DNA of 48,691 nt from Anaerolineae bacterium (GTDB lineage: Bacteria; Chloroflexota; Anaerolineae; B4-G1; SLSP01), in assembly GCA_016926915.1 (NCBI GenBank), contig JAFGNR010000083.1, forward strand, positions 1 through 48,691, read 5' to 3'. Under the pieces are notes generated by a model. The model saw only the letters and a program-made list of their open reading frames with translations. It made no database searches and was not told the DNA's origin. This document shows, piece by piece, positions 7,164 through 45,127 of the stretch. Every line of letters begins with the position of its first letter. The first letter of the stretch is position 1. Position numbers and translations under genes: made by a program.

Positions 7164-10100
7164 ATGCCGCATACCTACCTTGGGATCTCCAAACAGATCG
7201 CTTCGAGTATTCTGCTCCTTGTTGGAGTTGGCGCCGCTCTCCTCCCACCCTCTTCCAGCGCACCTGCAAGCACGCGAGTTCTTCACGCGGCCGGCAATGT
7301 TGTGATCAACGAAATCGCCTGGATGGGAACCGGTGCAGCTACCAGCGATGAATGGTTAGAACTCCACAACACGACAACCACCGCCATCGGGCTTGATGGC
7401 TGGACGGTTGCAGCGCAGGATGGGATTCCGACCATTCACCTTTCGGGGAGTATCCCTGCAAATGGGTTCTTCCTGTTGGAGCGCACTGATGATACCACTA
7501 TCGCCAACATCCCTGCCGACCAAATCTACACTGGCGCATTAGCCAATACCGGCGAGAGCTTGACCCTGACCGACGCTGAGGGCGCAATCATCGATACCGC
7601 CAACGCGGATGGCGGCGAGTGGCCGGCCGGCGACAATAGTCTGCGGGCATCCATGGAACGCATCAATCCCCGGGCTGGGGATGTGACGACAAACTGGGCC
7701 GCCAACGATGGTATCACCCGTAATGGCTGTGACGCTAATGGAGACGCCATCAATGGAACACCCCGCGCCATCAATTCTGCCGTCGCGGCGGCCGGCGCAG
7801 ATCTGGTCATCTCCAAAACCGGTCCTGTCACAGCCACGGCAGGCGCCGCCATCAGCTACACTATCACTCTCCTGAACGCCGGATCGCTTCCGGCGACAGG
7901 CAACCGCGTGACCGATACCCTGCCACTCGAGGTAACGTTCATGGAAAGCGTACCTCCCCCCACGGCAATCACCGGGCAGAACGTGATGTGGACGCTCGCG
8001 CCTCTTGAACTCGCCGCCATCCAGCAGATTACACTGACCGTGGCGGTTACGCCAGGTATCGTGGGCACATTTACCAATGAGGCGACCGCGACAACAGCTA
8101 CCCCCGAGACAGACACAGCTAATAATCACAGCGCCTGGGCAGTAACCGTAGGCGGCTCACCGCCGCCGGATGAGACAATCCTCATCAACGCCATCCTCTT
8201 CGATGGCTACCAACTCAACGACCCAGACGAAGCCGTGCAGTTGGTCAACACGAGTGCCAATCCTGTTCCCCTGAATGGGTGGACTCTGTGCAAAGTCACG
8301 ACGAGTCTGAGCTGCCGCGACCTTCCCGCTATCACGCTTCCCGCTGGCCAGACGGTTTGGCTAACCCGCGATGCAATGGCGTTTCGCACCTCATTTGGAT
8401 TTGATGCTGATTACGTGCTTAGTCCCTGGCTTTCCAGTGGTCTGAGCAACCTGGGCGATGAGGTGATTTTGCGGGACCAAAACGGGCAAATCAGCGATGC
8501 CCTCGTCTATGGAAGTGGGAATACGAACATTGCGGGCTGGTCGGGAGAAGCCCTGCAGAGTTATGGAAACGACGTTGCACGGGCGGAAGGCCAGATTCTC
8601 CAGCGTATCCCTGATGAAGTGCGCGGTCTTCCTTTGTCCGATACCAATACCCAGAATGATTGGATGCAAAACCTCACGGATCCCTTCAGGGGACGTCGCG
8701 CCGTCTTTCCCGGCTGGGACTTCGTGGACCCGCTCTTCTGGACAACGAAAGCCAGCGCATCCGCCGAACTTCACATCGGAATTCTCCCTGACAACGGCTA
8801 TGAGGTCATCCGCCAGGTACTTTCAACTGCTAACAGCAGCATCGACATCGAGGCTTATGAATTCAACCACGGCAGCCTGCTGAATCTACTGGTGGCCAAG
8901 GCGCAGCAAGGCGTTGCTGTCAGACTGTTGCTCGAAGGAGATCAAGTTGGGGTTGGCGAGCATGATGACAGCTGGCAACAGGAACTCTATGCCTGCCAAC
9001 AACTCGAAGCCGCAGGCGGTCAGTGCTATTTCATGATTCACGAGAGCGGGGAACGGATTTTCAACCGGTATACGCACTTGCACGCAAAATTGGTCGTGGT
9101 CGACAATGTCTGGGCCATCGTCTCCTCACAAAACTTCAGTAATCGTGGACTGCCGTCCGATCCCAAGGAAAATGGCACCTGCGGATCGCGAGGAACCATC
9201 ATCGCCACAACTTCCCCAGCCAGCGTAGCGCGGGCCGCCGAGATCTTTGCCCTGGACTGCGACGCAGCACACCACAACGACATCCTGCGTTGGAACACCG
9301 AGGGATACACGAAATATGGTCTACCAACCACAACGCCAGATTTGGGAATATCCGATAGCGTGAGCTACACCGTCCGGTTTGCAGAGCCATTCACCACAAC
9401 AGGCGCCATCCCACACGAACTTTTCACTGCGCCGGAGGCCGCACTGCGCCAATCGGATGCCCTATTGGGACTTCTCTCACTGGCCGGCGCCGGCGACCGC
9501 GTTTACGTAGAACAGCTCTACGAACATGCCGTTTGGGGGAACAGCGGCAATCCGGCAGTCGAACCCAACCCACGACTCGAGTCCTACATTTCAGCGGCGC
9601 GACGGGGCGCACAGGTACGCATTCTACTCAATGGCGGATACTTCGATCAAGAGTTCCTGGACTTGGTAGACAATCGCGCCACGCTGGCGTATCTTCAAGC
9701 CCTCGCCAGAACCGAGAACCTGGATCTCGAAGCCGCATTGGGCAACCCGACGCAATATGGCATTCACAACAAGATGGCGCTGGTCTGGATCGAGGGCACA
9801 GGAGGGTTCGTCCACATCGGATCGATCAACGGCAGCGAAAATTCCAACAAGGCCAATCGGGAAATCGCGCTCCAGGTACAAAACAACGCCGCCTTTGCCT
9901 ATTTGGAAGCCATGTTTCAGCTTGATTGGAACCTTTCCAATCCGGTTTTGCTCCCACTCCTGCTACATACTTACGAAATTCCAGATCGACTCCTGATCAG
10001 CGAAGTCTACTACGCCACGAGCAACACGAACGCCGAATGGGTTGAGATTCTCAACCCAACAACTGTAACCTTCGACCTCTCGGGCTACTGGATTGGGGAT

Positions 10101-10511
10101 GCGGCCGCGGCCGGCGACTATGAAGGAATGTATGGCTTTCCAGAAGGCGCCCGAATTGCGCCGGGAGCCGTGGCTGTAGTGGCCGTAAGTGGAAGCATGA
10201 CCCCGGCAGCCGATTTCGAAATCGTCGACGATTCGGAAAAACCTGACATGGTCAAATTGACTTCGTGGGGGACCGGGAACTGGACCCTGGCCAACGGGGG
10301 GGATCAGATTCTGTTGTTGGGACCGGGATATGCCCCGATTGACGTCGTAGTTTGGGGCGCCGCCATGTTCCCGGGCGCCCTGCCCCACCCGGGCGTCTCC
10401 GTTTCCTCTGCTTCATTGGAACGTTACCCGCCGGACGCAGATACCGACAATTGCGCCACGGATTTCCGGGAACGGGCACTTCCCAACCCTGGCGAGTTAC
10501 CCATCCCCTGA
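7164..10511 (+). CDS. Secreted multidomain protein: three lamin-tail domains, a DUF11-like repeat and a phospholipase D/nuclease-like domain with two HKD-type motifs
   Basis: Signal-anchor N-terminus ILLLVGVGAALLPPSSSAPA. Three LTD-like segments: VVINEIAWMG..DEWLELHN, ILINAILFDG..DEAVQLVN and LLISEVYYAT..AEWVEILN. DUF11-like segment ADLVISKTGPVTATAGAAISYTITLLNAG. HKD motif 1 is HAKLVVVD(x6)SSQN (His codon 9081-9083). Variant motif 2 is HNKMALVW..GSIN (His codon 9765-9767). Confidence 0.8.
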   Translation: MPHTYLGISKQIASSILLLVGVGAALLPPSSSAPASTRVLHAAGNVVINEIAWMGTGAATSDEWLELHNTTTTAIGLDGWTVAAQDGIPTIHLSGSIPANGFFLLERTDDTTIANIPADQIYTGALANTGESLTLTDAEGAIIDTANADGGEWPAGDNSLRASMERINPRAGDVTTNWAANDGITRNGCDANGDAINGTPRAINSAVAAAGADLVISKTGPVTATAGAAISYTITLLNAGSLPATGNRVTDTLPLEVTFMESVPPPTAITGQNVMWTLAPLELAAIQQITLTVAVTPGIVGTFTNEATATTATPETDTANNHSAWAVTVGGSPPPDETILINAILFDGYQLNDPDEAVQLVNTSANPVPLNGWTLCKVTTSLSCRDLPAITLPAGQTVWLTRDAMAFRTSFGFDADYVLSPWLSSGLSNLGDEVILRDQNGQISDALVYGSGNTNIAGWSGEALQSYGNDVARAEGQILQRIPDEVRGLPLSDTNTQNDWMQNLTDPFRGRRAVFPGWDFVDPLFWTTKASASAELHIGILPDNGYEVIRQVLSTANSSIDIEAYEFNHGSLLNLLVAKAQQGVAVRLLLEGDQVGVGEHDDSWQQELYACQQLEAAGGQCYFMIHESGERIFNRYTHLHAKLVVVDNVWAIVSSQNFSNRGLPSDPKENGTCGSRGTIIATTSPASVARAAEIFALDCDAAHHNDILRWNTEGYTKYGLPTTTPDLGISDSVSYTVRFAEPFTTTGAIPHELFTAPEAALRQSDALLGLLSLAGAGDRVYVEQLYEHAVWGNSGNPAVEPNPRLESYISAARRGAQVRILLNGGYFDQEFLDLVDNRATLAYLQALARTENLDLEAALGNPTQYGIHNKMALVWIEGTGGFVHIGSINGSENSNKANREIALQVQNNAAFAYLEAMFQLDWNLSNPVLLPLLLHTYEIPDRLLISEVYYATSNTNAEWVEILNPTTVTFDLSGYWIGDAAAAGDYEGMYGFPEGARIAPGAVAVVAVSGSMTPAADFEIVDDSEKPDMVKLTSWGTGNWTLANGGDQILLLGPGYAPIDVVVWGAAMFPGALPHPGVSVSSASLERYPPDADTDNCATDFRERALPNPGELPIP

Positions 10512-17755: not shown

Positions 17756-18231
17756 TCAGGAAGCGGCGCCTTGATGTTCAAGAGCTCCAGGATTTCCGCC
17801 TGCACGGCCCACATCCGCGCTTTTTCGCCCGGCTCGCCATGATCATACCCCAGGAGATGCAGCGTACCGTGCACGATCAACAGCTGGACTTCTTCGACAA
17901 CGGTACAGCTCACTTCCCGGGCCTGGGACGTGGCCCGAGGCAGTGAAATGACAATGTCCCCAAGATAACGGGGAAACCCGCCGCCGCCGCTGGCAAAAGG
18001 CCCGCGTGTGTCTTCTGGAAATGACAGCACATCGGTGGGGTGATCGATGCCCAAGAAACGCCGGTTCAAATCACGCAGCGCCTCGTCTCCGGCGATGACA
18101 ATGGTCATCTCGATAGCCTCAGCGATGTGCTGATGCTTCAAAACCACCAACGCGGCCAGGCGCAGCAGTTTTTCGTCGATGCCCTCCAGGGGCACTTCTG
18201 TCTGGATCTCGATCGTATGCGGAATAGTCAC
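17752..18231 (-). CDS. ybeY: rRNA maturation endoribonuclease YbeY
   Basis: Zinc motif HGTLHLLGYDH. The GTG start overlaps the upstream stop as GTGA (18228-18231). Confidence 0.9.
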   Translation of the reverse strand: MTIPHTIEIQTEVPLEGIDEKLLRLAALVVLKHQHIAEAIEMTIVIAGDEALRDLNRRFLGIDHPTDVLSFPEDTRGPFASGGGGFPRYLGDIVISLPRATSQAREVSCTVVEEVQLLIVHGTLHLLGYDHGEPGEKARMWAVQAEILELLNIKAPLPE

Positions 18232-20318
18232 GACGCTTCTTTTCCTTTTTCTGTAGGTTGCGGATACTGAATGCGGGGATGATAGGCGCCCCGGAGAACC
18301 TCAATGTAGGTTGCTTTGACAATTGCCAAATCGTGTAGCGTGATCGGGCATTCGTCGAGCTGTCCGCCTCGAATACGCGCATCAAAAATACGCTCGACGA
18401 CCGCGGTGATCTCTTCCGGCGTCGTAGGGCGCGCCGCCCGCGTGGCAGCCTCGCAGCCATCTGCCAGCATCGTCAGCGAGGTTTCGCGGCTCTGTGGACG
18501 GGGTCCCGGGTAGTGGAACAGCGATTCATCCACCAGACCGGCTTCACCGCCGGCCGCCTTGAGCGCTTTCTGGAAGAAAAAACTGGCCTGCGCTGTGCCA
18601 TGATGCTCCGGGATGAATGCGCGGACCCTGGCCGGCAATCCATACTGCCGCGCCAACTTGAGGCCGTCGGCCACGTGCCCGACCACAATGCTCGCACTGG
18701 CCTGGGGATCAAGCCGGTCGTGGGGGTTGCTCATGCCCTCTTGATTCTCGACAAAGAAATAGGGGCGCATCAGCTTGCCCACATCATGGTAATAGGTCCC
18801 GGCGCGCGTCAACAAGGCATTGGCCCCAATACGCTCGGCCGCCTGTTCAGCCATACTGGCCACCATCATCGTATGGTGAAACGTGGCCGGCGCCTCCCGT
18901 AACAACCGCTGCAAAAGCGGGTGGTTGGGATGGCTCAACTCCACCAACCGGAATGTCGTCGTCAAGTCGAAAAGCGGGGCCAGAAGAAACAACCCGCCGA
19001 GCGCCAACCCTCCAGATACCACGCCGCCGGCAACGCTGGCGCCGGCCTCAATGAGGAACGGCAACGGATCGGTGGTCAAATCGCGGACCGGCGACAAGAT
19101 CACCCCTACCACCGCCATCACCAACCCACCCAAAAGACCAGCGCGAAAGATCGATGCCGTTTGTTCATACTTAGGCAACGTCAACGCCGCCGCTGCTCCA
19201 CTCGCCCCGACCATCGCCAGCACCGCGAAGTTCCCTCCCGCAATCCAACCGCTAATGACTGCCAGCAAGAGAACCCCGCCCAACGCGGCTTCACGGCCCA
19301 CGGTGGTAGCCAGCAGAATACCCAACGCCGCCACGGGATAAAGGTGGAGCAGAAGCGGTCCCGACGGGACCAATAGACGCGCCAGCCACATGAATGTGAC
19401 CAGAAGCAAAAACATCAGCCCTTCCAGGCGCCGGTTGACCAACGCCTCGCGCTGGAGCACATACAAATACAATCCCAGAAGAAGGGTCAGCGCTAATGCC
19501 AGAGCCAGGGTCAAAATCGTTCCCGGCCAATCCCGGCGGGGTGTAGTCAGTCCCAATTGCGCCAGGGCCTCTACTTCCAGATCCGAGACCACACTGCCAT
19601 CCCGCACAATGATCTCGCCATTGCGCACGGTTCTCACGACAGGACCCACGGCCTGGGTGGCCTGTTCCCGCGCCAGATCGGTCGCTTCTTGATCATAGAA
19701 GCTATTCGGAACGATGAAACGCTGGACCAAGGCGACGACGAGACTGGCTTCATCCTGGGGTAGCTCTAGCGGGACCATCAGGGGGACGCGCTCGCGCACC
19801 CCATTCAACGATGTTCCCCGAATCTCCTCCTCACGCAGAATCTGATCCACCAACCCCCGGGATTCGACCTGGACGCGACTCCAACCGACATCCGGCAGGG
19901 TCAACATCACCGTAACGTCGCTCAACGCCATGTCCGCAATCTCGTCCACGGAAAGTACCCAACTACGTTTCTGGGAATCCGTAGCATACGTATCCGCGCG
20001 CACGGCCGTCACAAAGTCGAGCGCCGCGCGCACGCGGTCGAGTTGTTCGCGGACAATACTGAAATCCGGACGGGTATAGATGGACTCCACCTGACGGCGC
20101 GCTTCTTCTTGCGCCTGCACCGTCAGGATCTCGCTGACAAAGGTGAGTTCGCGAGGGGCATAAATATCTTGAGAGGCCACGTCGCCTGGGGCGAGGCTAT
20201 ACTGCCCGGTGAAACTAACCAACAAGACCATGGACACGGCCACGACCAGGCCCACAAGATACACGAGCTGGCGCAGCTTCCAGCGCCTCCCGTTGGATGA
20301 TGCTTCGACACGGTTCAT
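18228..20318 (-). CDS. 7TM-receptor / HD-domain membrane phosphohydrolase (PgpH/YqfF-like)
   Basis: An extracellular N-terminal domain is followed by seven hydrophobic helices and an HD domain (HHTMMVASMAEQAA...YYHDVGKL). It occupies the classical position upstream of ybeY-dgkA. Confidence 0.85.
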   Translation of the reverse strand: MNRVEASSNGRRWKLRQLVYLVGLVVAVSMVLLVSFTGQYSLAPGDVASQDIYAPRELTFVSEILTVQAQEEARRQVESIYTRPDFSIVREQLDRVRAALDFVTAVRADTYATDSQKRSWVLSVDEIADMALSDVTVMLTLPDVGWSRVQVESRGLVDQILREEEIRGTSLNGVRERVPLMVPLELPQDEASLVVALVQRFIVPNSFYDQEATDLAREQATQAVGPVVRTVRNGEIIVRDGSVVSDLEVEALAQLGLTTPRRDWPGTILTLALALALTLLLGLYLYVLQREALVNRRLEGLMFLLLVTFMWLARLLVPSGPLLLHLYPVAALGILLATTVGREAALGGVLLLAVISGWIAGGNFAVLAMVGASGAAAALTLPKYEQTASIFRAGLLGGLVMAVVGVILSPVRDLTTDPLPFLIEAGASVAGGVVSGGLALGGLFLLAPLFDLTTTFRLVELSHPNHPLLQRLLREAPATFHHTMMVASMAEQAAERIGANALLTRAGTYYHDVGKLMRPYFFVENQEGMSNPHDRLDPQASASIVVGHVADGLKLARQYGLPARVRAFIPEHHGTAQASFFFQKALKAAGGEAGLVDESLFHYPGPRPQSRETSLTMLADGCEAATRAARPTTPEEITAVVERIFDARIRGGQLDECPITLHDLAIVKATYIEVLRGAYHPRIQYPQPTEKGKEAS

Positions 20319-33715: not shown

Positions 33716-33770
33716 CGTATTACCTTTAGCCGGCAAACACCATTTGAAGGAGCCAAAGGAGGAACAAGGG

Positions 33771-34319
33771 ATGAACTTACTCGACCGCATCAAGGACGAC
33801 ATGTTTGGTCTGGAGCGTGGAATCGCCAATGTGGTCCCAGGCTACAAAGGCTACAAGCAAAAGGAACTGCGTCGCGAAGCCGATAAGCTGCTGCGAGACA
33901 CCATCGTATCACGCATGCGCACGGTCAAGACCCAGCTAGACGGCTTGCAGCAAGAGCTAATCGGTGCAGGCAAAATCGATCTGCTGGATGAGACCGGTAG
34001 CGCCGCAACACAACTTCAGATGTTTATCGATCGTGTCCGCACGGCGGCTTATGGGTACGGCGGTTTCTTCGACGCCGTCCGGATCAAGGAAGACGATTTG
34101 GATCGCGTCTATCAGTTCGACGCCGCGCTGCTCGATTACGCAGAACGCATTGAAGGAGCGATCGATCGAGCCCGCACAGGCATCCACGGCGAGGATTTGC
34201 GCGCGCATGTCCTCATGGTTCGCGACCTGGCGCGTGAGGCGAATGCCACTTTCGACGATCGTCGAGAAGTGATGACCGGGGCTTTCGATATCGGATCGAG
34301 CGCTTCTCCCGAGCTGTAA
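33771..34319 (+). CDS. Hypothetical all-helical soluble protein (182 aa)
   Basis: The ATG at 33771 follows AAAGGAGG. No TM segment and no recognisable motif; the composition is rich in charged heptad-like stretches. It ends 25 nt before the SPFH gene start (ATG 34345). Confidence 0.6.
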   Translation: MNLLDRIKDDMFGLERGIANVVPGYKGYKQKELRREADKLLRDTIVSRMRTVKTQLDGLQQELIGAGKIDLLDETGSAATQLQMFIDRVRTAAYGYGGFFDAVRIKEDDLDRVYQFDAALLDYAERIEGAIDRARTGIHGEDLRAHVLMVRDLAREANATFDDRREVMTGAFDIGSSASPEL

Positions 34320-34344
34320 CCTGTAAACCAAAAGGAGGTCATTG

Positions 34345-35388
34345 ATGGCTCGCATTTTCGATGTAATTGAATACGTGGACGAGGGACGGGGCGAAATCGT
34401 GCACCGCATTCCGGAGCGCGGCTCCGGCGATTTTCGCATCGGCAGCCAGTTGATTGTGCGCGAGTCACAGGCCGCCGTTTTCTTCCGCGACGGCAAGGCC
34501 CTCGATACATTTGGCGCGGGTCGCCACACGATCACCACCGCCAACATCCCGTACGTAGTCGACTGGGTCGGCAAGGCTTTCTCCAACCAGACGCCGTTCA
34601 AGGCCGAAGTTTATTTCGTGACGCTGCGTGAACTCAACGACATGAAATGGGGTACGCCGCAGCCCATTACCATTCCCGATCCGATTTTGGGCATGGCCCG
34701 CGTCACGGGTTACGGGACCTATGCCATCCAGGTAACGGATCCGCAGATGTTCGTATCCAAGATGGTCGGCACCCAGGGACTCTATCGCACGCGCGATATC
34801 GAGAGCTTCTTCCGGAGTATCATCATCAACAAGATGACGGATCTCATCGGCGAGATGAAGAAATCGGTCATCGAAATGGCGGCCTTCGTGGAAGAGCTCG
34901 CCGCTGGTGTGCGGGCGAAAGCTGCTGAGGAGTTCGCGGCCCGTGGCGTGACCCTGACTTCATACTACGTCGAGTCGATCGCGCCGACCGAGGAGACCGC
35001 GAAAGCCATTGACGCCCGGGCGTCGATGGGAGCTATCGGCGATATGAATGCTTACATGCAGTATCAAGCGGCGCAGGCGCTGCGCGAAACCGCTCAGAAG
35101 GAAGGCGGCGGCGCTGCAGCTACCGGCGTAGAGCTTGGCGCAGGCATCGGTTTGGGCGCCACAATGGCGCAGATGGTCAGCCAGGCCACCCAGCGCCCCG
35201 CCGCCCCCGCGCCGGCTGCGGCCGCGCCGGCTGCGGCCGCAGCAGCGCCCACAAACCCCCAAACAGCGGATGAAATTCAGGCCCTGCTGGATAACCTGGA
35301 CTCCCGCCTGGCCGCCGGCGAGATCAGCGAGAATGTCTACGAGCGACTCTACACCAAGTGGGAGACGCGCCTCAACAACATCAAGTAA
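34345..35388 (+). CDS. SPFH/Band-7 domain protein of the YdjI (COG4260) type with Ala/Pro linker and C-terminal SHOCT-like helix pair
   Basis: MARIFDVIEYVDEGRGEIVHRIPERGSGDFRIGSQLIVRESQAAVFFRDGK is the characteristic N-terminus of YdjI-like SPFH proteins. The C-terminus DEIQALLDNLDSRLAAGEISENVYERLYTKW resembles SHOCT. The ATG follows AAAGGAGG by 6 nt. Confidence 0.75.
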   Translation: MARIFDVIEYVDEGRGEIVHRIPERGSGDFRIGSQLIVRESQAAVFFRDGKALDTFGAGRHTITTANIPYVVDWVGKAFSNQTPFKAEVYFVTLRELNDMKWGTPQPITIPDPILGMARVTGYGTYAIQVTDPQMFVSKMVGTQGLYRTRDIESFFRSIIINKMTDLIGEMKKSVIEMAAFVEELAAGVRAKAAEEFAARGVTLTSYYVESIAPTEETAKAIDARASMGAIGDMNAYMQYQAAQALRETAQKEGGGAAATGVELGAGIGLGATMAQMVSQATQRPAAPAPAAAAPAAAAAAPTNPQTADEIQALLDNLDSRLAAGEISENVYERLYTKWETRLNNIK

Positions 35389-35409: not shown

Positions 35410-35451
35410 AAACATCTCGCCTGTCCATATGCGGCAGGCGAGATGTTTGTT
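35410..35451 (+). terminator. Intrinsic terminator after the SPFH gene
   Basis: A perfect 14-bp stem, AAACATCTCGCCTG (35410-35423) with CAGGCGAGATGTTT (35435-35448), has an 11-nt loop and runs into TTTGTT. It lies 21 nt after the stop codon. Confidence 0.75.
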
Positions 35452-35462
35452 GGAAGATAGCA

Positions 35463-35491
35463 TTGACGTACTCAAAAAAGCTCTGTATACT
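35463..35491 (+). promoter_or_regulatory. Promoter of the sensor kinase gene
   Basis: TTGACG (35463-35468), 17-nt spacer, TATACT (35486-35491). It sits in an AT-richer gap about 80 nt upstream of ATG 35570. Confidence 0.65.
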
Positions 35492-35569: not shown

Positions 35570-38041
35570 ATGCACGATGTGACCAGGTTACTACTCCCCA
35601 TCACGTTCATCATTGCACTCACTATGGCAGCCCTAATCTGGAAAACGTGGCGCAGAGGACGCCTTACGAATCGCAGACTCCATGATCAGGAGCAGATTCT
35701 TGAACGCCTACTGGCGGTTCTGGATGAAGGTATTGCGCTATGCGATGAGCACGGCGCGATCGTAATATGGAGCCAGCAACATGAGGACATCACGGGCATT
35801 CCGCGCCACGAAGCCAGGGGCGAATTTGCGTGGGATCTGGATGCAAAACTCATGCAAAAATCCGGCAGCCAGCCCAACCCATCCACACACGCGATGCTAG
35901 AGGGTTGGCTCCAGACCGGTGAGGTTCCCGCAGACAGGCAGGTAGTCAAGACAGTTATCCAACGCGCCGATGGCAACACCAGCATTCTCTTACAACGGAC
36001 TTTCACCGTTCCTACATCACGTGGGTTCATGATCGGCAGCATTATCCAAGATATCACAAGCGCTGAACAGACGGCCAGCGCCCTCAAAGAAAAAGAACTC
36101 CGTTATCGCGATCTTTTCGACCGCATCCCCGCCGGTCTATATCGCACGACGCCAGAGGGACAGATCCTCGAAGCCAATGCCGCATTGGTCAAAATACTGG
36201 GATTCCCGGATAAAGAAACGTTGTTAGCCGCGAATGCCGTAAGCCTCTATGACACCCCCGAGTCTCGACAAGCCATCCTACGCCAGATCGATCTCAATGG
36301 CGCCGTACAACTCGCGAAAGTGAAACTGCGTCGAAATGATGGCGCTAACATCTGGGTCGAAGAATCGGTACAGAGCGTCAAAGATGAACAGGGGAACCCC
36401 CTGTTCTACGATGGCGTTCTGGTTGACGTCACCGGGTGGCATCATGCCGAGAGCAACCTCCGTAAGAGCGAAGCGCGAAATCGCGCGCTTTTGCAGGCTC
36501 TGCCGGATCTCATCTTCATCTTTAGCGAAGAAGGTATCTATCTGGATGGCTTTGCTAATGCTCCAGACAACCTCCTGGTTCCCAAAGAGTCCTTTATCGA
36601 CCGATCGCTTTTCGACATTATGCCGCCTGACGTGGCACAACGGGCAATGGCGTTGATTGAGCGCGTCCTAAACACCGGCGACATGCAAGCACTTGAGTAC
36701 AGCCTGCCATTTCATAACGGAACACAGCGCCACTTCGAAGCGCGGATCGTGCCATATCTGGATGGCAATGTACTATCCATCGTTCGCGACATCACCAAAC
36801 GCAAACTTGCCGAGCACGCCCAGCAAGACTATGCGATACGTTTGGCTACCCTACACGAGATTGACCACGCTATCATCGAAGCACAATCCCCGGAATCGAT
36901 CGCGCAGGCTGCGCTAGGAAGAATCCGGTATCTTGTGGGCAGCGAAGGGGGATACGTGGGCCTCTTCGATGGACACAACCACACGTTAACGGTCTTTGCC
37001 GCCGATCACAGCTTCGGAAGTCTGGAAACCATGATTGGCGCCCGGATTGCACTCGGCGCAGCCGACATGTGCTCCCCGGCATTCCAGGACTTTACCCAGG
37101 GGGTGGCCTACCACGCGGCGGACGGAGTACTCGATTCTTTTGTAGCGACGACACTCCACAGAATCGGACTTGTGGACGTCCAAAGCGTTGTGGCTGTGCC
37201 GTTCATCGTGCAAACGGATCTAATCGGCGTCCTCATGTTGGTTTCCACACAGCACGCCGCTTTCTCTCAAGATCACATTGACATCACCAAAGAAATTGCC
37301 GGGTCGTTGGCCATCGCCATCCACCAGGCGCAGTTACACGCACAAGCCAAGCGCGAGGCCGAAGACAAAGCCATGCTTCTGGATGAGATCAACCACCGGG
37401 TAAAAAACAACCTGGCCGCCATCATTGGCTTACTCTATGCCGAACAACGCCGTAACGCCAACCGGTTGCCGGCGCAACACCCAGAAGTGGACAAGGAATC
37501 CCGGGCGCTTCTTGAGACCGCCCTTGACCGCGTTATGAAACGCATTCAGGGCCTCTCGGCCGTCCACGACATGCTGTCGGCATCGGCGTGGTCTCCGCTG
37601 CCCTTGCATGAGTTGGTCAAGCGCATCATCCACATGTCACTCCGCGTGCTGCCAGGCGATAAAAAGGTAAGCGTTGACAACCGTGAATCTGAAGTCGAGG
37701 TGGATTCCAGACAAGCCAGTAGTCTGGCCTTGATCCTGCACGAGCTCGTCACCAACACGCTGAAATATACGCTCGAAGGTCGCGATTCCACACATATTCA
37801 GACACACATCACGACCCGCCCGACATCACCGGATACCGGGCATCCGGCGACGACCTCGATGATCACGCTGCGCTATAGTGATGATGGCCCAGGATATCCA
37901 CGCGCAGTCCTCGCCGGACAACAACGGGACTCCGGCCTGTTTCTCATAGAGCGACTGGTCCGAAACAATCTGCAGGGATCGCTTGAACTCTGCAATGACC
38001 ACGGCGCTGTCGCCACGCTCGAATTCCCCGCGCCAGAATGA
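35570..38041 (+). CDS. Membrane-anchored multi-PAS / GAF sensor histidine kinase (HisKA_2 type)
   Basis: One N-terminal TM. Repeated PAS-like units follow (ERLLAVLDEGIALCDEHGAIVIWS; YRDLFDRIPAGLYRTTPEGQILEAN; NRALLQALPDLIFIFSEEGIYL), then a GAF-like segment. The H-box is EINHRVKNNLAAI (His codon 37394-37396). The C-terminal ATPase region contains DDGPGYP. Confidence 0.85.
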   Translation: MHDVTRLLLPITFIIALTMAALIWKTWRRGRLTNRRLHDQEQILERLLAVLDEGIALCDEHGAIVIWSQQHEDITGIPRHEARGEFAWDLDAKLMQKSGSQPNPSTHAMLEGWLQTGEVPADRQVVKTVIQRADGNTSILLQRTFTVPTSRGFMIGSIIQDITSAEQTASALKEKELRYRDLFDRIPAGLYRTTPEGQILEANAALVKILGFPDKETLLAANAVSLYDTPESRQAILRQIDLNGAVQLAKVKLRRNDGANIWVEESVQSVKDEQGNPLFYDGVLVDVTGWHHAESNLRKSEARNRALLQALPDLIFIFSEEGIYLDGFANAPDNLLVPKESFIDRSLFDIMPPDVAQRAMALIERVLNTGDMQALEYSLPFHNGTQRHFEARIVPYLDGNVLSIVRDITKRKLAEHAQQDYAIRLATLHEIDHAIIEAQSPESIAQAALGRIRYLVGSEGGYVGLFDGHNHTLTVFAADHSFGSLETMIGARIALGAADMCSPAFQDFTQGVAYHAADGVLDSFVATTLHRIGLVDVQSVVAVPFIVQTDLIGVLMLVSTQHAAFSQDHIDITKEIAGSLAIAIHQAQLHAQAKREAEDKAMLLDEINHRVKNNLAAIIGLLYAEQRRNANRLPAQHPEVDKESRALLETALDRVMKRIQGLSAVHDMLSASAWSPLPLHELVKRIIHMSLRVLPGDKKVSVDNRESEVEVDSRQASSLALILHELVTNTLKYTLEGRDSTHIQTHITTRPTSPDTGHPATTSMITLRYSDDGPGYPRAVLAGQQRDSGLFLIERLVRNNLQGSLELCNDHGAVATLEFPAPE

Positions 38042-38058
38042 TGCCTTCCAACCCTGTT

Positions 38059-38086
38059 TTGACTTAATAACCGGGATGCGTATACT
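38059..38086 (+). promoter_or_regulatory. Promoter of the CHAT-WD40 gene
   Basis: TTGACT (38059-38064), 16-nt spacer, TATACT (38081-38086). It lies 45 nt upstream of ATG 38131, with a CCGGAGG SD in between. Confidence 0.6.
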
Positions 38087-38130
38087 TGCCCAAACGATAG
38101 ACAGCTTAATACCCCCGGAGGCTTGGAAGT

Positions 38131-40320
38131 ATGGTGGATGAACCACTGCGTGTCTCGAACTTCGACATTGACATTGGCGATGGGCAAGGCCGGGATTATC
38201 CCGTCACAGCCCGCACCCCGGCAGGAGAGGCGCAGGAAACACTACACTTTCCATTTGATCAACTTGCCCTCGAGAATGCTGAACTCCAGCTCAAATTGGC
38301 GCTGCGCCAATCGCATCACGTCGCACGCCGCATCCTATCGCCGGAAATCCAGGCGGTGCAGGATTTCGGAGCCGCGCTCTTCGATGCGCTATTCACCGGT
38401 GAGATTCGTAATCGCTACGATCTAAGCCGGGAACGGGTTTTGCAGACCGGGGAATATCTCCGCATACGGTTGCGAATCACCGCCCCGGAATTAGCTGCGC
38501 TGCCTTGGGAGTTTCTCTACGATCCTCGCACCGATAACTACCTGAGTCTGTCTTCGCATACACCCATCATACGGTATCTGGAACTCCCTCACCCACCGCG
38601 CGCGATCAAGATCACGCCTCCGCTCCGCATTCTGGGATTGACCTGCAGCCCGGCTAATCTTCCGCCCCTTGATTTAGCGCAAGAACAACGTCGTATCGAA
38701 ACCGCCCTAGAGCCGCTGATGGAACGCGGGTTCATCGAATTGCACTGGGCCAAGAGACATACCTGGCGCGATCTCCAGCGGGCCTTACGCCAAGAAACAT
38801 GGCACGTATTCCACTTCATCGGCCACGGGGGGTTCGATCGCGGGCGGGACGAAGGATTCGTCGTTCTGGAAGAGTCCGATCACACCGCGCAGTACCTCTA
38901 CGCTACACAGTTAGGCCGCATGCTCGCCGATCATACCACACTAAGGTTGGCGTTTCTAAACGCGTGTGAGGGAGGAACGGCTGGCGATCTGGATGTGTTT
39001 TCCAGCACAGCGGCGATCCTCGCGCGACAGGGGCTTCCGGCGGTGTTGGCAATGCAATATAGCCTGAGTGATCAAGCCGCGATCGAAATTGCCGCCACAT
39101 TCTACGAAGCCCTGACCGATAACTATCCGGCCGACGTCGCTCTCTCCGATGCCCGCAAAGCTGTAGAGATCTCCCTTCCTCAGACGGTTGAGTGGGGTAT
39201 CCCTATTCTGCACTTGAGAACGCCTGATGGCTATCTGTTCACCCTTCCCCCAACCTCGCTCAGCGGTTTTGCTTCATCACATGGGCCACGGCATTCACCC
39301 TCCCGAAGCGAAGCTCTTCACAAACCGGAACGTGCTGAGACACTCCGGGCAAAGGTTTCAACACTGGCGCTGCTCCTGAAAGGAGAGTCTTTCATCACGA
39401 TCGCAAACCATGGGGCTCCGGTCAACAGTGTAGCATTCAGCCCCCGGGGAGATATCGCGGCAACCGCCGGTGATGACAACAAGATTCGCATCTGGGACCT
39501 TGCAAACGGCACGCTGGCCCAGATACTCCGAGGACATACCGCACCGGTAAGTCATGTGGCTTTCCACCCCGACGGCAACGTGCTCGCGTCCGGTTCCCAA
39601 GACGCAACAGTACGTCTGTGGAATGCAGATCAAGGGAAACTCCTATCCACGTTTAGCGCCGGAGATGGGGTCAAGGCAGTCGCCTTCAGTCCAAGGGGCC
39701 ACATCCTGGGAGCCGGTAACTGCGAACACACCCTCTATCTATGGGATACTCACCGCGCGACGATTCTGCGGCTATTACGGGGCCATACGAGCCCGGTCAA
39801 TGCCCTGGCATTCAGTCCGGAAGAAGATCGCCTGGCCTCAGGAGCGGCGGATGGAGTCTTGCGATTATGGGAACTGGCGGGCGGGCAGTTCGTCGAGACA
39901 CTCAAACACTCCCACGCCCTGAGCAGCATCGCATTCAGTAGAGACGCCGGGTTACTGGCTGCCGGCAGCGTCGATGGCGCCCTGCTGATCTGTCATCGCA
40001 TGGTTCACGCATCACAGGCGCTAACTGCGCAGGGTGTGCAGTTCAATCTGACCGCGTGGAGTATCTACGCGCCCAAGAAGACTTTCAGAAGCACACTGGA
40101 ATCGATTCGCTGGCTCGCCTTTGGACAGCGGGATACACTGCTGATCGCCGGCGGCGACGCACCGCAAATCCAAGTCCTTGACGTGACGCTGGGCAAAATC
40201 CTCCGGCGCCTGTCGGGGATCACATCAGGAGTCCGGGGCGGCGCCCTCAGTGCAGACGGGCGCCACCTCCTGGCAGCTGCATCCGATGGCGCGCTCTGCG
40301 CCTGGGATCTCGGCAGGTGA
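38131..40320 (+). CDS. CHAT-domain (caspase-like) protease fused to a WD40 beta-propeller
   Basis: CHAT dyad: His in FHFIGHGG (codon 38824-38826) and Cys in FLNACEGG (codon 38965-38967). The C-terminal ~320 aa contain about seven WD40 blades (GHTAPVSHVAFHPDGNVLASGSQDATVRLWN; GHTSPVNALAFSPEEDRLASGAADGVLRLWE). Confidence 0.85.
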   Translation: MVDEPLRVSNFDIDIGDGQGRDYPVTARTPAGEAQETLHFPFDQLALENAELQLKLALRQSHHVARRILSPEIQAVQDFGAALFDALFTGEIRNRYDLSRERVLQTGEYLRIRLRITAPELAALPWEFLYDPRTDNYLSLSSHTPIIRYLELPHPPRAIKITPPLRILGLTCSPANLPPLDLAQEQRRIETALEPLMERGFIELHWAKRHTWRDLQRALRQETWHVFHFIGHGGFDRGRDEGFVVLEESDHTAQYLYATQLGRMLADHTTLRLAFLNACEGGTAGDLDVFSSTAAILARQGLPAVLAMQYSLSDQAAIEIAATFYEALTDNYPADVALSDARKAVEISLPQTVEWGIPILHLRTPDGYLFTLPPTSLSGFASSHGPRHSPSRSEALHKPERAETLRAKVSTLALLLKGESFITIANHGAPVNSVAFSPRGDIAATAGDDNKIRIWDLANGTLAQILRGHTAPVSHVAFHPDGNVLASGSQDATVRLWNADQGKLLSTFSAGDGVKAVAFSPRGHILGAGNCEHTLYLWDTHRATILRLLRGHTSPVNALAFSPEEDRLASGAADGVLRLWELAGGQFVETLKHSHALSSIAFSRDAGLLAAGSVDGALLICHRMVHASQALTAQGVQFNLTAWSIYAPKKTFRSTLESIRWLAFGQRDTLLIAGGDAPQIQVLDVTLGKILRRLSGITSGVRGGALSADGRHLLAAASDGALCAWDLGR

Positions 40321-40377: not shown

Positions 40378-41070
40378 TCAGGCCTCGATATCGAACGCCT
40401 TCAATACCTCGGCGCGTGTTTCTGCCGGCAACGCTGGTCGCCGCCCCGGGCCACGGAGCCACCCTTTCACTTTGCTGGCGCGCAGACTGGGAATCGGCGC
40501 CGAGTCCGCTTCCAACTGCACATCCGGATCAATGAAAACCGCAATCGCCCGAACAGGGATTTCCAGCGCTTCCGGCAAGACACGCTTCAAATACTTCACC
40601 ACCTGATCGACCAGCGCCTCCCCCTGAAGTTCAGGGCGTCCTAACGACTCTTGCCCCGCCATCTGCCGGAAAAAGCGCAGCCGCTGTTGGTGCTGCCAGC
40701 GATTGTTCTGAAAAGCGACCGTTCCCCCCTGGTTTTTCACGACCAACACAGTTACACCACCGGGATCAACCAACATAAAGGGTACCGGTCCTGAATACAT
40801 CAACAAGGTATGGGTATCGTCTAACCCTTTCAACAGTTCTGGCACCTTGAGGTGCTGCGCCATAGGACCGGAAAAACGGTCGGTGTAGTAACTGCCAGCC
40901 ACCGACATAATAAAGCCCACCGAGCCGATGAGCATAGTGAGTGACCACATTTCCTCCCGCGTGAAAAACACAATCAGCGATCCCCCCAGCACGACTAACG
41001 CACCCAGAGAGAGCCACTGCCCTGCTTTTACCCGGCGGTCGATATATTTGTCGCGCGACACGATTTTCAT
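40378..41070 (-). CDS. Two-TM membrane protein with NERD-like domain
   Basis: TM1 is WLSLGALVVLGGSLIVFF and TM2 is LTMLIGSVGFIMSVAGSYY. The core FMLVDPGGVTVLVVKNQGGTVAFQNNRW resembles the NERD D...ExK block, with Val in place of Glu. It lies 19 nt downstream of plsX. Confidence 0.55.
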   Translation of the reverse strand: MKIVSRDKYIDRRVKAGQWLSLGALVVLGGSLIVFFTREEMWSLTMLIGSVGFIMSVAGSYYTDRFSGPMAQHLKVPELLKGLDDTHTLLMYSGPVPFMLVDPGGVTVLVVKNQGGTVAFQNNRWQHQQRLRFFRQMAGQESLGRPELQGEALVDQVVKYLKRVLPEALEIPVRAIAVFIDPDVQLEADSAPIPSLRASKVKGWLRGPGRRPALPAETRAEVLKAFDIEA

Positions 41071-42202: not shown

Positions 42203-45127
42203 TCATACCCACCAGGGCGGTTCCTCCGGCGGAGGCACGCCCCAGGGGTCGTCATCAGATTGGGACATGACCGGCAGCGGCTTACCCGCCAACCACCGTC
42301 GCGCATATTCAGGCAAGTCGGCAACCGGACCAATTCTGACAGTAGGCCCTGGCAGGGACTGGATGAATCTCTGACCATAACGTTTGGTCACGATACGGCT
42401 ATCCAACACAACCACAATGCCGGTATCCGACCGGGTGCGGATCAGACGACCAAACCCTTGCAAGAAGCGCAACACCGCTTCGGGCACCATGTAATCATTA
42501 AACGCACTGTCGCAAGCCTCCGATCGGGCAGCAACAATGGGGTCATTCGGCACATCAAAAGGCAGCTTGGCGATCACCAGACAAGATAGATCTTCTCCGG
42601 GAATGTCGACCCCTTCCCAGAATGAACGCGTTCCTAACAGCACAGCCCGTGCATCTCTGCGGAAATTCTGCAGGAGTTGTGCCCGTGATGAACCATTGCC
42701 CTGCGCGTAGACGGTAATCCCAGCCCCACCAAGCGGGCCCCTGATCATGTCTGCCGTTGCACGCAGCTGAGTATATGATGTGAACAGCGCCATGGCTCGC
42801 CCCTGTGTGGCTGTGAATAAGTTCAACAACGCCTCCGAGACACGTTGTTGGTAACCGGCGCGTCCTGGCTCCGGAATATTGTTGGCGACATACAACAACG
42901 CCGCGGACCTATAATCAAACGGAGAGCCAACCGCCAACTCTTCAGCATCCCAGGCGCTTAGCCGTTCACGCACATAGTCGAACGAATCATCCACACGCAA
43001 GGTGGCCGACGTCATGATGACGGTACGCTTCTTCTCGAAAAGGTGTTCCTGTACCAAGGGTCCCACGTGCAGCGGCGCCGAATGCAAGGCCAATACTCCA
43101 TCGGCATACGAAGCACTCGTGTTGTTCCTTCGCGAGCTGGATTCAAGCCAGTAAATTGCATTCTCTGAAGGCTGGGCAATCAAGGCAGCCAATTGCATGT
43201 GGGCTTCGGACAGGCGCAACGATGTGCTGAGCAGACGCGAAAGTGGCGCCTCAAGATCGGGCCCCGCAGATTCCTGGGCGTCGTCCAATGCGTTTGCCAG
43301 ACGTTGCAATCCTTGCACGAGCGTCCCAAACGGAATAGAAACGCTATCCCAGGTCACTGCAACGGCTTCCCAGCCTGGTTGCATCCGCGAGCCCGGCGTC
43401 AGTCGCAAACGCACGCCATAGGGGTTGTCCCCATCCTGAACGTGGTCATCCAGAAACACCGTCAAGACATCGAACAGACGCTCGAGATGCTGCATCGCCT
43501 GATTTGCGGCGTCCTGCAATCTGATCACTTGATCCGCCAGCGCGGTACGGACCTTGCGTGAGAGTTGCTGGGCGACACCCTGCAGCTCATCCAAAATCCC
43601 CGGAAAGTTTCCCCGACCCGAAAGCAACTCCTCGAATAGATACCGCAGGCTGTACCAATCCACAGAGAAGTGTAGCGCCTCCGTGGTAGCACGCTCCAGA
43701 TGGTGAGCCTCATCCACAATCAGATGATTGTAGTCCGGCAGAACACGGTTCTGCGCTGCAATATCGGCCAACAGCAGCGCATGGTTGACGACCAACAGAT
43801 GTACGGTCTCCGCGCGCTCGCGTGCCTGGTAGAAGAAGCAACCCGAGCCGTGATAGTAAGGACAATCGCGAGCACTACAGTTCTCGGCAGAGGCGGATAG
43901 ACGCGACCACACGCCGCGTTCCCCAGGTGTAGGCAAGAAGAGACCATCGCCATCCCCATCCAAAGTGTTGGGTAACCAAAGCAGGATTTTTGCCAGAACA
44001 CACATTTCATCCTGGGTGGAAGGCCCGCGACGCCGTAAAGCCTGGAACTGCCGGCGACACAAATAGTGCGAACGGCCTTTCAAAACCATGTACCTGAAGC
44101 CGGTCGGGAATAGACGCTCCAGTAGAGGGATGTCTTTCCCGGCAAGTTGTTCCTGCAAGTTGATCGTGTTGGTCGAGATAACAACACGATCGTCGTTTTG
44201 ATCGGCCCACTTGAGCGCGGGCAAGAGATATGCCAACGATTTCCCGGTCCCGGTCCCGGCTTCGACCAGGAGATGATGTCCCTGGTTGAAAGCCAGAACA
44301 GCGCTGCGCATCATCGCGACCTGTTCCTCGCGAAATTCATAGTCCTCGAAAACCTGGGCCAGCGGGCCATTCTCACCCAGCAGATCTTCGAGACGGGCAA
44401 CATCAATCGGAACCGATTTCTCACGAGGTTCCAGTGGATCAGACTCAACTTCAGGTAGGAATAGCGGCCCAAACACATCCTGACCACGACGGTCTGCTAA
44501 CTGCACGCCGATGGCGCCCTGAAACCCCTCCCGGCTGCGGTTACGCAACGCGGATTGGAAGAAAAACCCCGGCCCCCAGTTGATGAATCCACCGAGACGA
44601 TACAGCTCCTCCAATGTTTCCTGGGGGAGCCGTAGAGCACGCTCAAACAAAGCGTTGTAGAGCGCGTGTGTCATACGCGCATCATCCAGAGCCCGGTGGG
44701 TCTGTGCTGTAGTAGCGATACCCAGCTCGTGCGTAAGGTTCTCCAGGCTGTACCGGCTGGCATGTGGCACCAGAATACTGGCCAATTCGAAAGTATCGAT
44801 TCGGGAATTGCCAACCAGAGCGTTATGATTACGAAGAAACGCCAGGTCAAAGCCCACGTTGTGCCCGATAACCGTGTCGCGCCCTACAAAGTCGCGTAAA
44901 TTACGGATGACCGCGCGCGCTGGCGGCGCGCCCGCCACGTCACGATCCGAAATGCCGGTCAGCTCCGTTACGAAATGTGGAATCGGCCGCCCTGGGTCGA
45001 CAAAAGAGGAAAAAGCCTCGATTTCTTCAGTGCCAGAAAAACGTACAGCCCCCACTTCGATAATCTCATCCCTCGCGGGGTCAAGACCGGTGGTCTCCAA
45101 GTCGAGGGAGACATAGGTGTTACGCAT
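42203..45127 (-). CDS. dinG: DinG-family ATP-dependent helicase with N-terminal DnaQ-like 3'-5' exonuclease domain
   Basis: Exo motif I is YVSLDLETTGLDPARDEIIEVGAV. Helicase motif I is VEAGTGTGKSLAYLLPA. A DEAH box (VDEAHHLE) and Cys-rich segments are consistent with an Fe-S helicase. Confidence 0.9.
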   Translation of the reverse strand: MRNTYVSLDLETTGLDPARDEIIEVGAVRFSGTEEIEAFSSFVDPGRPIPHFVTELTGISDRDVAGAPPARAVIRNLRDFVGRDTVIGHNVGFDLAFLRNHNALVGNSRIDTFELASILVPHASRYSLENLTHELGIATTAQTHRALDDARMTHALYNALFERALRLPQETLEELYRLGGFINWGPGFFFQSALRNRSREGFQGAIGVQLADRRGQDVFGPLFLPEVESDPLEPREKSVPIDVARLEDLLGENGPLAQVFEDYEFREEQVAMMRSAVLAFNQGHHLLVEAGTGTGKSLAYLLPALKWADQNDDRVVISTNTINLQEQLAGKDIPLLERLFPTGFRYMVLKGRSHYLCRRQFQALRRRGPSTQDEMCVLAKILLWLPNTLDGDGDGLFLPTPGERGVWSRLSASAENCSARDCPYYHGSGCFFYQARERAETVHLLVVNHALLLADIAAQNRVLPDYNHLIVDEAHHLERATTEALHFSVDWYSLRYLFEELLSGRGNFPGILDELQGVAQQLSRKVRTALADQVIRLQDAANQAMQHLERLFDVLTVFLDDHVQDGDNPYGVRLRLTPGSRMQPGWEAVAVTWDSVSIPFGTLVQGLQRLANALDDAQESAGPDLEAPLSRLLSTSLRLSEAHMQLAALIAQPSENAIYWLESSSRRNNTSASYADGVLALHSAPLHVGPLVQEHLFEKKRTVIMTSATLRVDDSFDYVRERLSAWDAEELAVGSPFDYRSAALLYVANNIPEPGRAGYQQRVSEALLNLFTATQGRAMALFTSYTQLRATADMIRGPLGGAGITVYAQGNGSSRAQLLQNFRRDARAVLLGTRSFWEGVDIPGEDLSCLVIAKLPFDVPNDPIVAARSEACDSAFNDYMVPEAVLRFLQGFGRLIRTRSDTGIVVVLDSRIVTKRYGQRFIQSLPGPTVRIGPVADLPEYARRWLAGKPLPVMSQSDDDPWGVPPPEEPPWWV

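Follow-up and report, generated by a model that had tools for sequence, protein, structure and literature searches.

Can a CHAT protease that is fused to a WD40 propeller and encoded by a single gene sense a trigger and act on it without a dedicated partner? The question is raised by a gene on contig JAFGNR010000083.1 (GenBank assembly GCA_016926915.1) from an Anaerolineae bacterium, of which a stretch of 48,691 nucleotides (forward strand; referred to here as the window) has been analysed. The gene, called CHAT-WD40 here, is a 729-codon open reading frame (ORF) that starts with ATG, and an identical protein has been called on Logan contig SRR13394437_270326. The protein truly belongs to both the CHAT and the WD40 superfamily. 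The reading favoured here, with a probability of about one half, is that it is a cytoplasmic single-chain sensor-protease of the conflict or programmed-death type.

The architecture is known, abundant and already annotated, and the protein is a new member rather than a new kind of system. Other groups have already listed fusions of CHAT to repeats, thousands of close architectural relatives are present in the databases, and a single gene adds little to them. Its value is that of a clean minimal representative of a clade of about 6,000 clusters that shares a rigid protease module. It offers a model for the gating of a caspase-like protease without an NTPase or a nucleotide second messenger, and for the substrates of such a protease, and it could help to address whether filamentous Chloroflexota use such proteins for altruistic cell death.

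The protease module

The Pfam CHAT family (PF12770; clan CD, caspase-haemoglobinase fold) matches residues 78–345 of the protein (E = 4.5e-24, 85.8 bits, cutoff 24), and the N-terminal half searched alone gives 1.2e-24. Residues 1–378 compared with Pfam at E ≤ 10 match CHAT and, weakly, Peptidase_C25, and nothing else. The PADLOC profile SAVED_CHAT (PDLC02016) matches residues 197–365 at 8.3e-17, covering profile positions 125–270 of 498. The closest solved structure, both by sequence (E = 2e-5) and by fold (Foldseek E = 3e-13), is that of SAVED-CHAT (PDB 8tl0). An earlier note on this DNA had reported a CHAT domain with both catalytic residues intact, and the Pfam match and an alignment of 77 sequences agree with it as to the residues, His232 and Cys279, and their codons (Table 1). 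All 31 family-invariant residues of the N-terminal half are kept in the query. The position of Cys279 resembles that of the catalytic Cys295 of HetF (PMC9457339). The module is a CHAT module with an intact His232/Cys279 dyad and, as judged from its sequence, a predicted protease.

An AlphaFold2 model of the N-terminal half has a predicted local distance difference test score (pLDDT) of 92.2 and a predicted template modelling score (pTM) of 0.92. The top Foldseek matches of this model are SAVED-CHAT, Csx29/TPR-CHAT, separases and DdvA, a CHAT-containing anti-sigma factor; caspases and metacaspases rank below these. By prediction, the N-terminal half has a caspase/separase-like fold. The alignments with Csx29 and separase comprise about 375–394 columns (TMq 0.55–0.60, sequence identity 9–12%) and exceed the catalytic core of about 200 residues; residues 1–160 are therefore read from the predicted structure as the N-lobe of a two-lobed CHAT/separase-type module of about 370 amino acids.

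The modelled N-lobe is composed of a three-stranded sheet (residues 8–39), three helices (44–106) and strands at 109–116 and 146–149. It carries a family motif, xLDFxLEIGxGxGRxYPVxVxRSPAGEAxxTxxFPFD, which is found in nearly all relatives. Searched alone, residues 1–160 have no Pfam match, not even at E ≤ 10. All of the 150 best representatives from an exhaustive HMMER search match residues from about 10 to 372 in one best-scoring stretch. The N-terminal 140 or so residues had previously been regarded as a separate part, to be sought elsewhere in the genome as a module of its own. This division does not hold, since the Pfam CHAT match begins at residue 78 and residues 10–372 are conserved as one unit; the N-lobe belongs to the CHAT/separase-type module and is not independent.

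The WD40 propeller, linker and insert

A full-length AlphaFold2 model built with 60 homologues has a mean pLDDT of 87. In this model the protease module spans residues 1–372, a flexible linker of about 40 residues comes next, and 28 strands form seven blades at residues 420–729. The earlier count of about seven WD40 blades is borne out, and a 22-residue insert follows blade 5. The model is disordered in the region of the insert, at residues 626–646. Foldseek results for the full-length model were saturated by WD40 structures, and the N-terminal half was searched separately for this reason. The propeller superposes on the seven-bladed structures 5yzv, 7big and 7bie, some of which are designer proteins, with template modelling (TM) scores of 0.93–0.95.

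Mean identity to homologues of the WD40 type is 52% in the N-terminal half versus 30% in the propeller. The WD repeats of the query have a mean pairwise identity of 0.26 versus a family mean of 0.33, as measured by a crude method; repeat homogeneity, a proxy for recent repeat shuffling, is unremarkable. The features of the gene, its surroundings and the related loci mentioned below are listed in Table 1.

Table 1. Coordinates of the CHAT-WD40 gene, its parts and associated features (window positions unless a locus is named)
Feature	Position	Strand	Remarks
Lineage-specific insertion (kinase and CHAT-WD40)	35570..40320	+	Between SPFH operon and plsX operon; absent at the syntenic site in relatives
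Sigma-70-like promoter candidate, TTGACT-N16-TATACT	38059..38086	+	10/12 to consensus; within the 89-bp gap 5' of the ORF
Shine-Dalgarno sequence, GGAGG	38117..38121	+	9 nt before ATG; read from the sequence
CHAT-WD40 gene	38131..40320	+	729 amino acids and stop codon
N-lobe of CHAT module (predicted), residues 1–160	38131..38610	+	Conserved with the core as one unit; AlphaFold2 pLDDT 92
CHAT catalytic core, caspase-haemoglobinase fold (predicted), residues 163–362	38617..39216	+	Pfam, PADLOC and PDB 8tl0 matches
Catalytic His232 (predicted), motif FHFIGHGG	38824..38826	+	Invariant (77 sequences); aligns with HFIGHG of 8tl0
Catalytic Cys279 (predicted), motif FLNACEGG	38965..38967	+	Invariant (77 sequences); aligns with LNAC of 8tl0
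Disordered linker (predicted), residues 378–418	39262..39384	+	pLDDT <50; length differs among homologues
Seven-bladed WD40 beta-propeller, residues 420–729	39388..40317	+	Pfam WD40 E = 1.5e-51; putative ligand/substrate binder
Lineage-specific 22-residue insert, residues 621–642	39991..40056	+	Between blades 5 and 6; zero occupancy in 59 aligned homologues
Pro/Thr-rich protein genes at related loci	L050:12472-13623, L052:5100-6254, L053:12802-14115, L055:5576-6652, L080:4536-6128, L081:2438-4438		

Distribution of the family and exchange of C-termini

A word-indexed search gave more than 3,500 significant relatives in Anaerolineae, Ktedonobacterales and other Chloroflexota; those that are named carry the labels "CHAT domain-containing protein" or "WD40 repeat protein". 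With the N-terminal half as query, HMMER run exhaustively against 1.84 billion representatives gave 6,051 clusters at 50% identity (E ≤ 1e-30). A scan of GTDB with the full protein gave matches to WD40 only, and an alignment of the N-terminal half was used as the query instead. This half is encoded at no fewer than 587 loci of GTDB species representatives. The taxa are mainly Chloroflexota, together with Actinomycetota, Acidobacteriota, Gemmatimonadota and others, and mostly belong to filamentous or multicellular phyla (Chloroflexota, Actinomycetota), a pattern also described in PMC7159879. The best GTDB relative is 55% identical in the N-terminal half and no orthologue was found; neither the GTDB scan nor the exhaustive search gave a relative with more than 60% identity in this half.

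The C-termini and neighbours were counted at the 73 best GTDB loci encoding the N-terminal half. The C-terminus is WD40 in 12 proteins, FGE-sulfatase in 15, TPR in about nine and NACHT/AAA_16 in two or three. Kelch, PA14, periplasmic-binding and EAD2 domains occur once each, and many C-termini have no Pfam match. FGE-sulfatase/CLec domains fused to CHAT or TIR have been described as putative antigen sensors diversified by diversity-generating retroelements (PMC10907252). The aligned sequences identify the propeller as the fast-evolving and exchangeable part of the family.

Neighbours of the homologues

All-against-all clustering of four genes on each side revealed no neighbour family in more than seven of the 73 loci, and among the 149 immediately adjacent proteins each Pfam family is represented three times at most; the description "stand-alone" in the earlier note is therefore upheld. 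The largest cluster of neighbours is made up of a further CHAT paralogue that ends in an EAD7 domain. A minority of loci contain genes for known adaptors of conflict systems (CATRA-N/C, CATASP or Trypco1) or tandem CHAT-EAD7 paralogues. Tandem paralogues of the CHAT N-terminal half lie within a few kb of each other at five loci (L022, L026, L032, L063 and L076), and some of them end in EAD7, not in repeats.

The three closest full-length CHAT-WD40 relatives are encoded by lone genes. One of them (P0009, 42% identical; L168:8001-10307, assembly GCA_025060135.1, contig JANXCY010000015.1, Anaerolineae) is located inside an ATP-synthase operon in the order atpA, atpG, a 45-amino-acid NTP_transf_2 fragment, CHAT-WD40, atpD and atpC. 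This location suggests that CHAT-WD40 genes can insert into core operons. Of the other two, one is embedded in a radical-SAM cluster and one is flanked by a glutamate dehydrogenase gene and an MNT/HepT pair.

A Pro/Thr-rich, signal-peptide-like protein of about 360–670 amino acids without a Pfam match is encoded 3' of CHAT on the same strand in a subclade from Caldilineaceae and Anaerolinea-type metagenome-assembled genomes. The start of its gene overlaps the CHAT stop codon by 1–4 nt in three of the six loci (Table 1). The protein, which is not encoded in the window, may be a translationally coupled partner or a substrate in that subclade.

Genomic context and insertion

The 5' neighbour of CHAT-WD40 is a gene (35570–38041, same strand) for a histidine kinase with PAS, PAS, GAF and HWE/HisKA_2 domains. 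On the 3' side the minus strand carries a convergent gene for a 230-amino-acid protein (unk230), followed by plsX, a gene for a DEDDh-DinG helicase and lon. The organism is placed in Anaerolineae by a GTDB scan anchored on PlsX, in which the best PlsX identity was 79%. The gene order in relatives is lon, dinG, plsX, an optional gene of about 415 amino acids and unk230, directly followed by the convergent SPFH-unk191 pair (L107, L120, L123, L127 and L132). At two other loci (L109 and L116) only unrelated genes lie between unk230 and SPFH, and neither the kinase nor CHAT is among them. The segment containing the kinase and CHAT-WD40 genes is a lineage-specific insertion, and CHAT-WD40 is an accessory gene. 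The G+C content (0.54–0.59) stays level from the insertion into its flanks. No flanking direct or inverted repeats of note and no mobile-element genes were found; tRNA-like landmarks were not sought beyond the repeats.

The 48.7-kb window contains neither a STAND NTPase, TIR, gasdermin or cas gene nor a CRISPR or other repeat array. The absence of an adjacent STAND NTPase, gasdermin and CRISPR array, pointed out before, thus extends to the whole window.

The 230-amino-acid protein (40378–41070, minus strand) has two N-terminal hydrophobic helices and no significant family match. Its gene lies directly 3' of plsX, or of the gene of about 415 amino acids after plsX, and its product is 32–47% identical across many Anaerolineae. 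The gene is kept beside plsX at about 25 loci of related Anaerolineae where CHAT is lacking, and it therefore belongs to the plsX operon; the protein may be linked to lipid synthesis. It had been proposed as a NERD-like candidate partner of CHAT-WD40, a proposal that was dropped on account of the NERD E-value (0.15) and of the linkage to plsX, the gene being the last of that operon.

Promoter and gene spacing

The promoter candidate upstream of CHAT-WD40 (Table 1) is one of three promoter-like sites in 5.4 kb, compared with 2.7 expected from shuffled sequences. Two of the three are intergenic and lie 5' of the kinase gene (35463–35491) and 5' of the CHAT-WD40 ORF. As the number of sites does not exceed that in shuffles, only the position of the candidate is suggestive. 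CHAT-WD40 is separated by 89 bp from the kinase stop codon and by 57 bp from the convergent gene, and it is therefore not translationally coupled to either neighbour. The near-consensus motif and the lack of coupling in the earlier description were both recovered, although the motif count matches that of shuffles.

Proposed mode of action

An exchangeable binder, a rigid protease cassette, a patchy distribution, tandem paralogues and occasional EAD, CATRA and Trypco neighbours together favour a self-contained sensor-protease. This behaviour of the family matches the conflict/programmed-death signature of Kaur et al. (PMC7159879) and Doré et al. (PMC10907252). CHAT-WD40 shares with the systems of Kaur et al. 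2020 (Kaur, Burroughs, Iyer & Aravind; PMC7159879) an intact CHAT dyad and a repeat domain (WD40, TPR) regarded as a putative sensor of protein ligands. Enrichment in Chloroflexota and Actinomycetota, patchy distribution and paralogue arrays are also shared, and a minority of the relatives are found beside CATRA, Trypco1 and EAD. Those systems are defined by an NTPase (STAND, MoxR-vWA) and EAD adaptors, whereas CHAT-WD40 and most of its clade have neither nearby. No NTPase or EAD domain is present in the CHAT-WD40 protein or in the window, and the protein is not assigned to the STAND or ternary (MoxR-vWA, CATRA) systems. By analogy, CHAT-WD40 would work most like the CHAT-repeat sensors and effectors of the conflict systems described by the Aravind group, with a HetF-like order of domains.

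In the resting state, the protease would be kept inactive by the linker and the propeller. Binding of a protein ligand (an invader, damage or self signal) to the propeller would relieve autoinhibition or bring protease modules together. The active CHAT protease would then cut either its own linker or cellular targets, one or more, whose genes lie elsewhere, and an infected or damaged cell in a filament would undergo growth arrest or death. For activation and outcome the models are Craspase, SAVED-CHAT, separase and the conflict systems of Kaur et al., from which both are inferred by analogy.

A bolder form of this proposal can be put forward only tentatively. The CHAT cassette of about 370 amino acids and a swappable binder (WD40, FGE-sulfatase/CLec, TPR or Kelch) could constitute an NTPase-free immune receptor and executioner in a single polypeptide, a "one-protein inflammasome". 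Direct recognition of an invader protein would fall to the binder, the protease would kill or arrest the cell without a dedicated effector gene, and the system would spread as a lone gene able to settle even within core operons, as between atpG and atpD in one Anaerolineae genome.

Several observations weigh against a conflict-type sensor-protease. The local surroundings of CHAT-WD40 are housekeeping, and a gene for a substrate or effector is not identifiable in the window. In relatives, the same gap between SPFH and unk230 is occupied by genes for a 2-oxoacid dehydrogenase complex, for MsrA/B and for an ABC transporter. The neighbours of the homologues are mostly metabolic, and the PADLOC hits among the 149 adjacent proteins are isolated (DarG, one PD-T4-6 kinase, MzaA and one reverse transcriptase); with so few hits the defence-island signature is weak. 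Blades 5–7 of the propeller are degenerate, blade 6 having a mean identity to homologues of 17%. The full-length model has a pTM of 0.60 and the orientation of its domains is uncertain, which makes autoinhibition pure inference.

The gap between SPFH and unk230 was also considered as a defence islet. This was rejected, because the metabolic genes in the gap of relatives indicate a synteny breakpoint and not a defence hotspot.

Alternative explanations

The main rival to the sensor-protease reading is a HetF-like regulatory protease, which is possible although clearly the less probable of the two. Such a protein would cleave one endogenous regulator of division, differentiation or stress at a specific site, the propeller would recruit the substrate, and the upstream PAS/GAF kinase might act in the same pathway. 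HetF of Anabaena PCC 7120 (NF045509; PMC9457339, PMC8406250) is an experimentally proven site-specific protease that cleaves PatU3 at R117|S118 (PMC9457339). It is the best NCBIfam match of the query (1.2e-17, residues 78–369 versus 72–383 of HetF) and comes from a filamentous bacterium. The order of parts is the same, with an N-terminal CHAT domain, a catalytic Cys near position 280–295 and then a repeat domain. The housekeeping surroundings, a promoter-like site of its own, the adjoining sensor kinase and the scarcity of defence-island signal also fit a regulator. However, the match scores 63.5 bits against an equivalog cutoff of 1200, and CHAT-WD40 is not an orthologue of HetF. HetF, a conserved factor in the divisome and in differentiation, combines a transmembrane segment with periplasmic TPRs, whereas CHAT-WD40 is soluble, lacks a transmembrane segment, has WD40 repeats in place of the TPRs and is not kept in relatives. 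Its absence from the syntenic site of sister species speaks against a conserved developmental regulator, as does the lack of any relative above 60% identity in the N-terminal half. The swappable C-termini, tandem paralogues and EAD/CATRA/Trypco links fit conflict systems better.

It is unlikely that CHAT-WD40 instead serves as the effector of a multi-component system whose other genes lie elsewhere in the genome (STAND NTPase, CATRA ternary or EAD-coupled), in which the propeller or N-lobe would dock and the other machinery would sense. Some relatives do adjoin CATRA-N/C, CATASP, Trypco1, AAA_16 or NACHT genes or CHAT-EAD7 paralogues, and caspase-like effectors recruited by such systems have been described by Kaur et al. 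(PMC7159879, PMC8195603). The CHAT-WD40 protein, however, contains no EAD or Death-like adaptor. No such component is encoded in the window, tblastn with the recurrent neighbours of relatives found none, and more than 90% of the homologue loci are without such genes.

A two-gene module with the upstream kinase, in which a small-molecule or redox cue would switch on the protease through phosphorylation or binding, has very little probability. The two genes share a strand and the same insertion between SPFH and unk230, and the kinase has no adjacent response regulator. Against this, each gene has a promoter-like site in its own upstream gap and CHAT-WD40 lacks a receiver or phospho-acceptor domain. 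At only one of the 73 loci is there a kinase of weak similarity (21% identity), two genes away, and no kinase lies beside the three closest CHAT-WD40 relatives. From these counts the orphan PAS/GAF kinase, which the earlier note had named as a candidate partner, was rejected as unsupported. The neighbourhood of kinase, CHAT and NERD-like genes, the conservation of which had been suggested as a check, is not conserved as such; the NERD-like gene is kept with plsX in the absence of CHAT.

A decaying relic, with an intact ORF, eroded function, a degenerate propeller and a disordered insert, would agree with the low identity of blade 6 (17%) and the unique 22-residue disordered insert after blade 5, but is highly improbable in view of the uninterrupted 729-codon frame, the 31 of 31 invariant residues kept in the N-terminal half, the confident predicted fold of both domains and the flat G+C content across the insertion and flanks.

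Comparison with other CHAT systems

CHAT-WD40 can be compared with several other CHAT proteases. Csx29/TPR-CHAT of type III-E systems (Craspase) and eukaryotic separase share the predicted two-lobed fold of the whole N-terminal half. In Csx29 the repeats form an N-terminal TPR domain, which binds Cas7-11, whereas CHAT-WD40 has no TPR; gRAMP, a CRISPR array, a Csx30-like substrate and cas genes are all absent from the window, and the protein is not placed with Craspase.

The His and Cys motifs are shared with SAVED-CHAT, a group associated with CBASS or type III CRISPR, the protease of which is activated by ligand-induced assembly. The PADLOC profile is matched in its CHAT part only. No SAVED domain is present in CHAT-WD40, and no CD-NTase, cas genes, array or PCaspase neighbour was found, which sets it apart from that group.

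Borvo (BovA) is likewise a single-gene CHAT protease without a partner, but its architecture differs. Membership of Borvo, raised by a mention in the earlier note, is not borne out, as the BovA profile (PDLC03832) matches only 86 residues (202–287) at E = 0.0033 and 14.5 bits. The protein is also not classed as a gasdermin-activating protease; its neighbours are the PAS kinase and the 230-amino-acid protein with two transmembrane helices, and no gasdermin match occurs in the window.

Other features of the window

The unk191 gene (NCBIfam LIMLP_15305 family, 2.7e-13) and the SPFH/Band_7 gene (33744–35388, plus strand) upstream of the insertion form a pair that stays together in related Anaerolineae. 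The SPFH stop codon is followed by a perfect 14-bp inverted repeat (35410–35448), which is terminator-like.

The DinG-type helicase of 974 amino acids (42203–45127, minus strand) has an N-terminal DEDDh (RNase_T) exonuclease domain and matches PADLOC "typeIV_DinG" at 6e-127. Its gene is syntenic with lon and plsX in relatives. The protein is probably a housekeeping DinG and not CRISPR-associated.

The rest of the window contains housekeeping genes, including those for glycogen and cell-envelope enzymes, mutL, a seven-transmembrane (7TM) HD receptor and similar genes. A protein of 1115 amino acids (7164–10511, plus strand) with a DUF11 domain, two phospholipase D (PLD)-like domains and three lamin-tail domains is an unusual and probably extracellular PLD-family enzyme. 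The 7TM receptor is encoded at 18228–20318 on the minus strand and has an intracellular HD hydrolase domain (7TMR-HDED / 7TM-7TMR_HD / HD).

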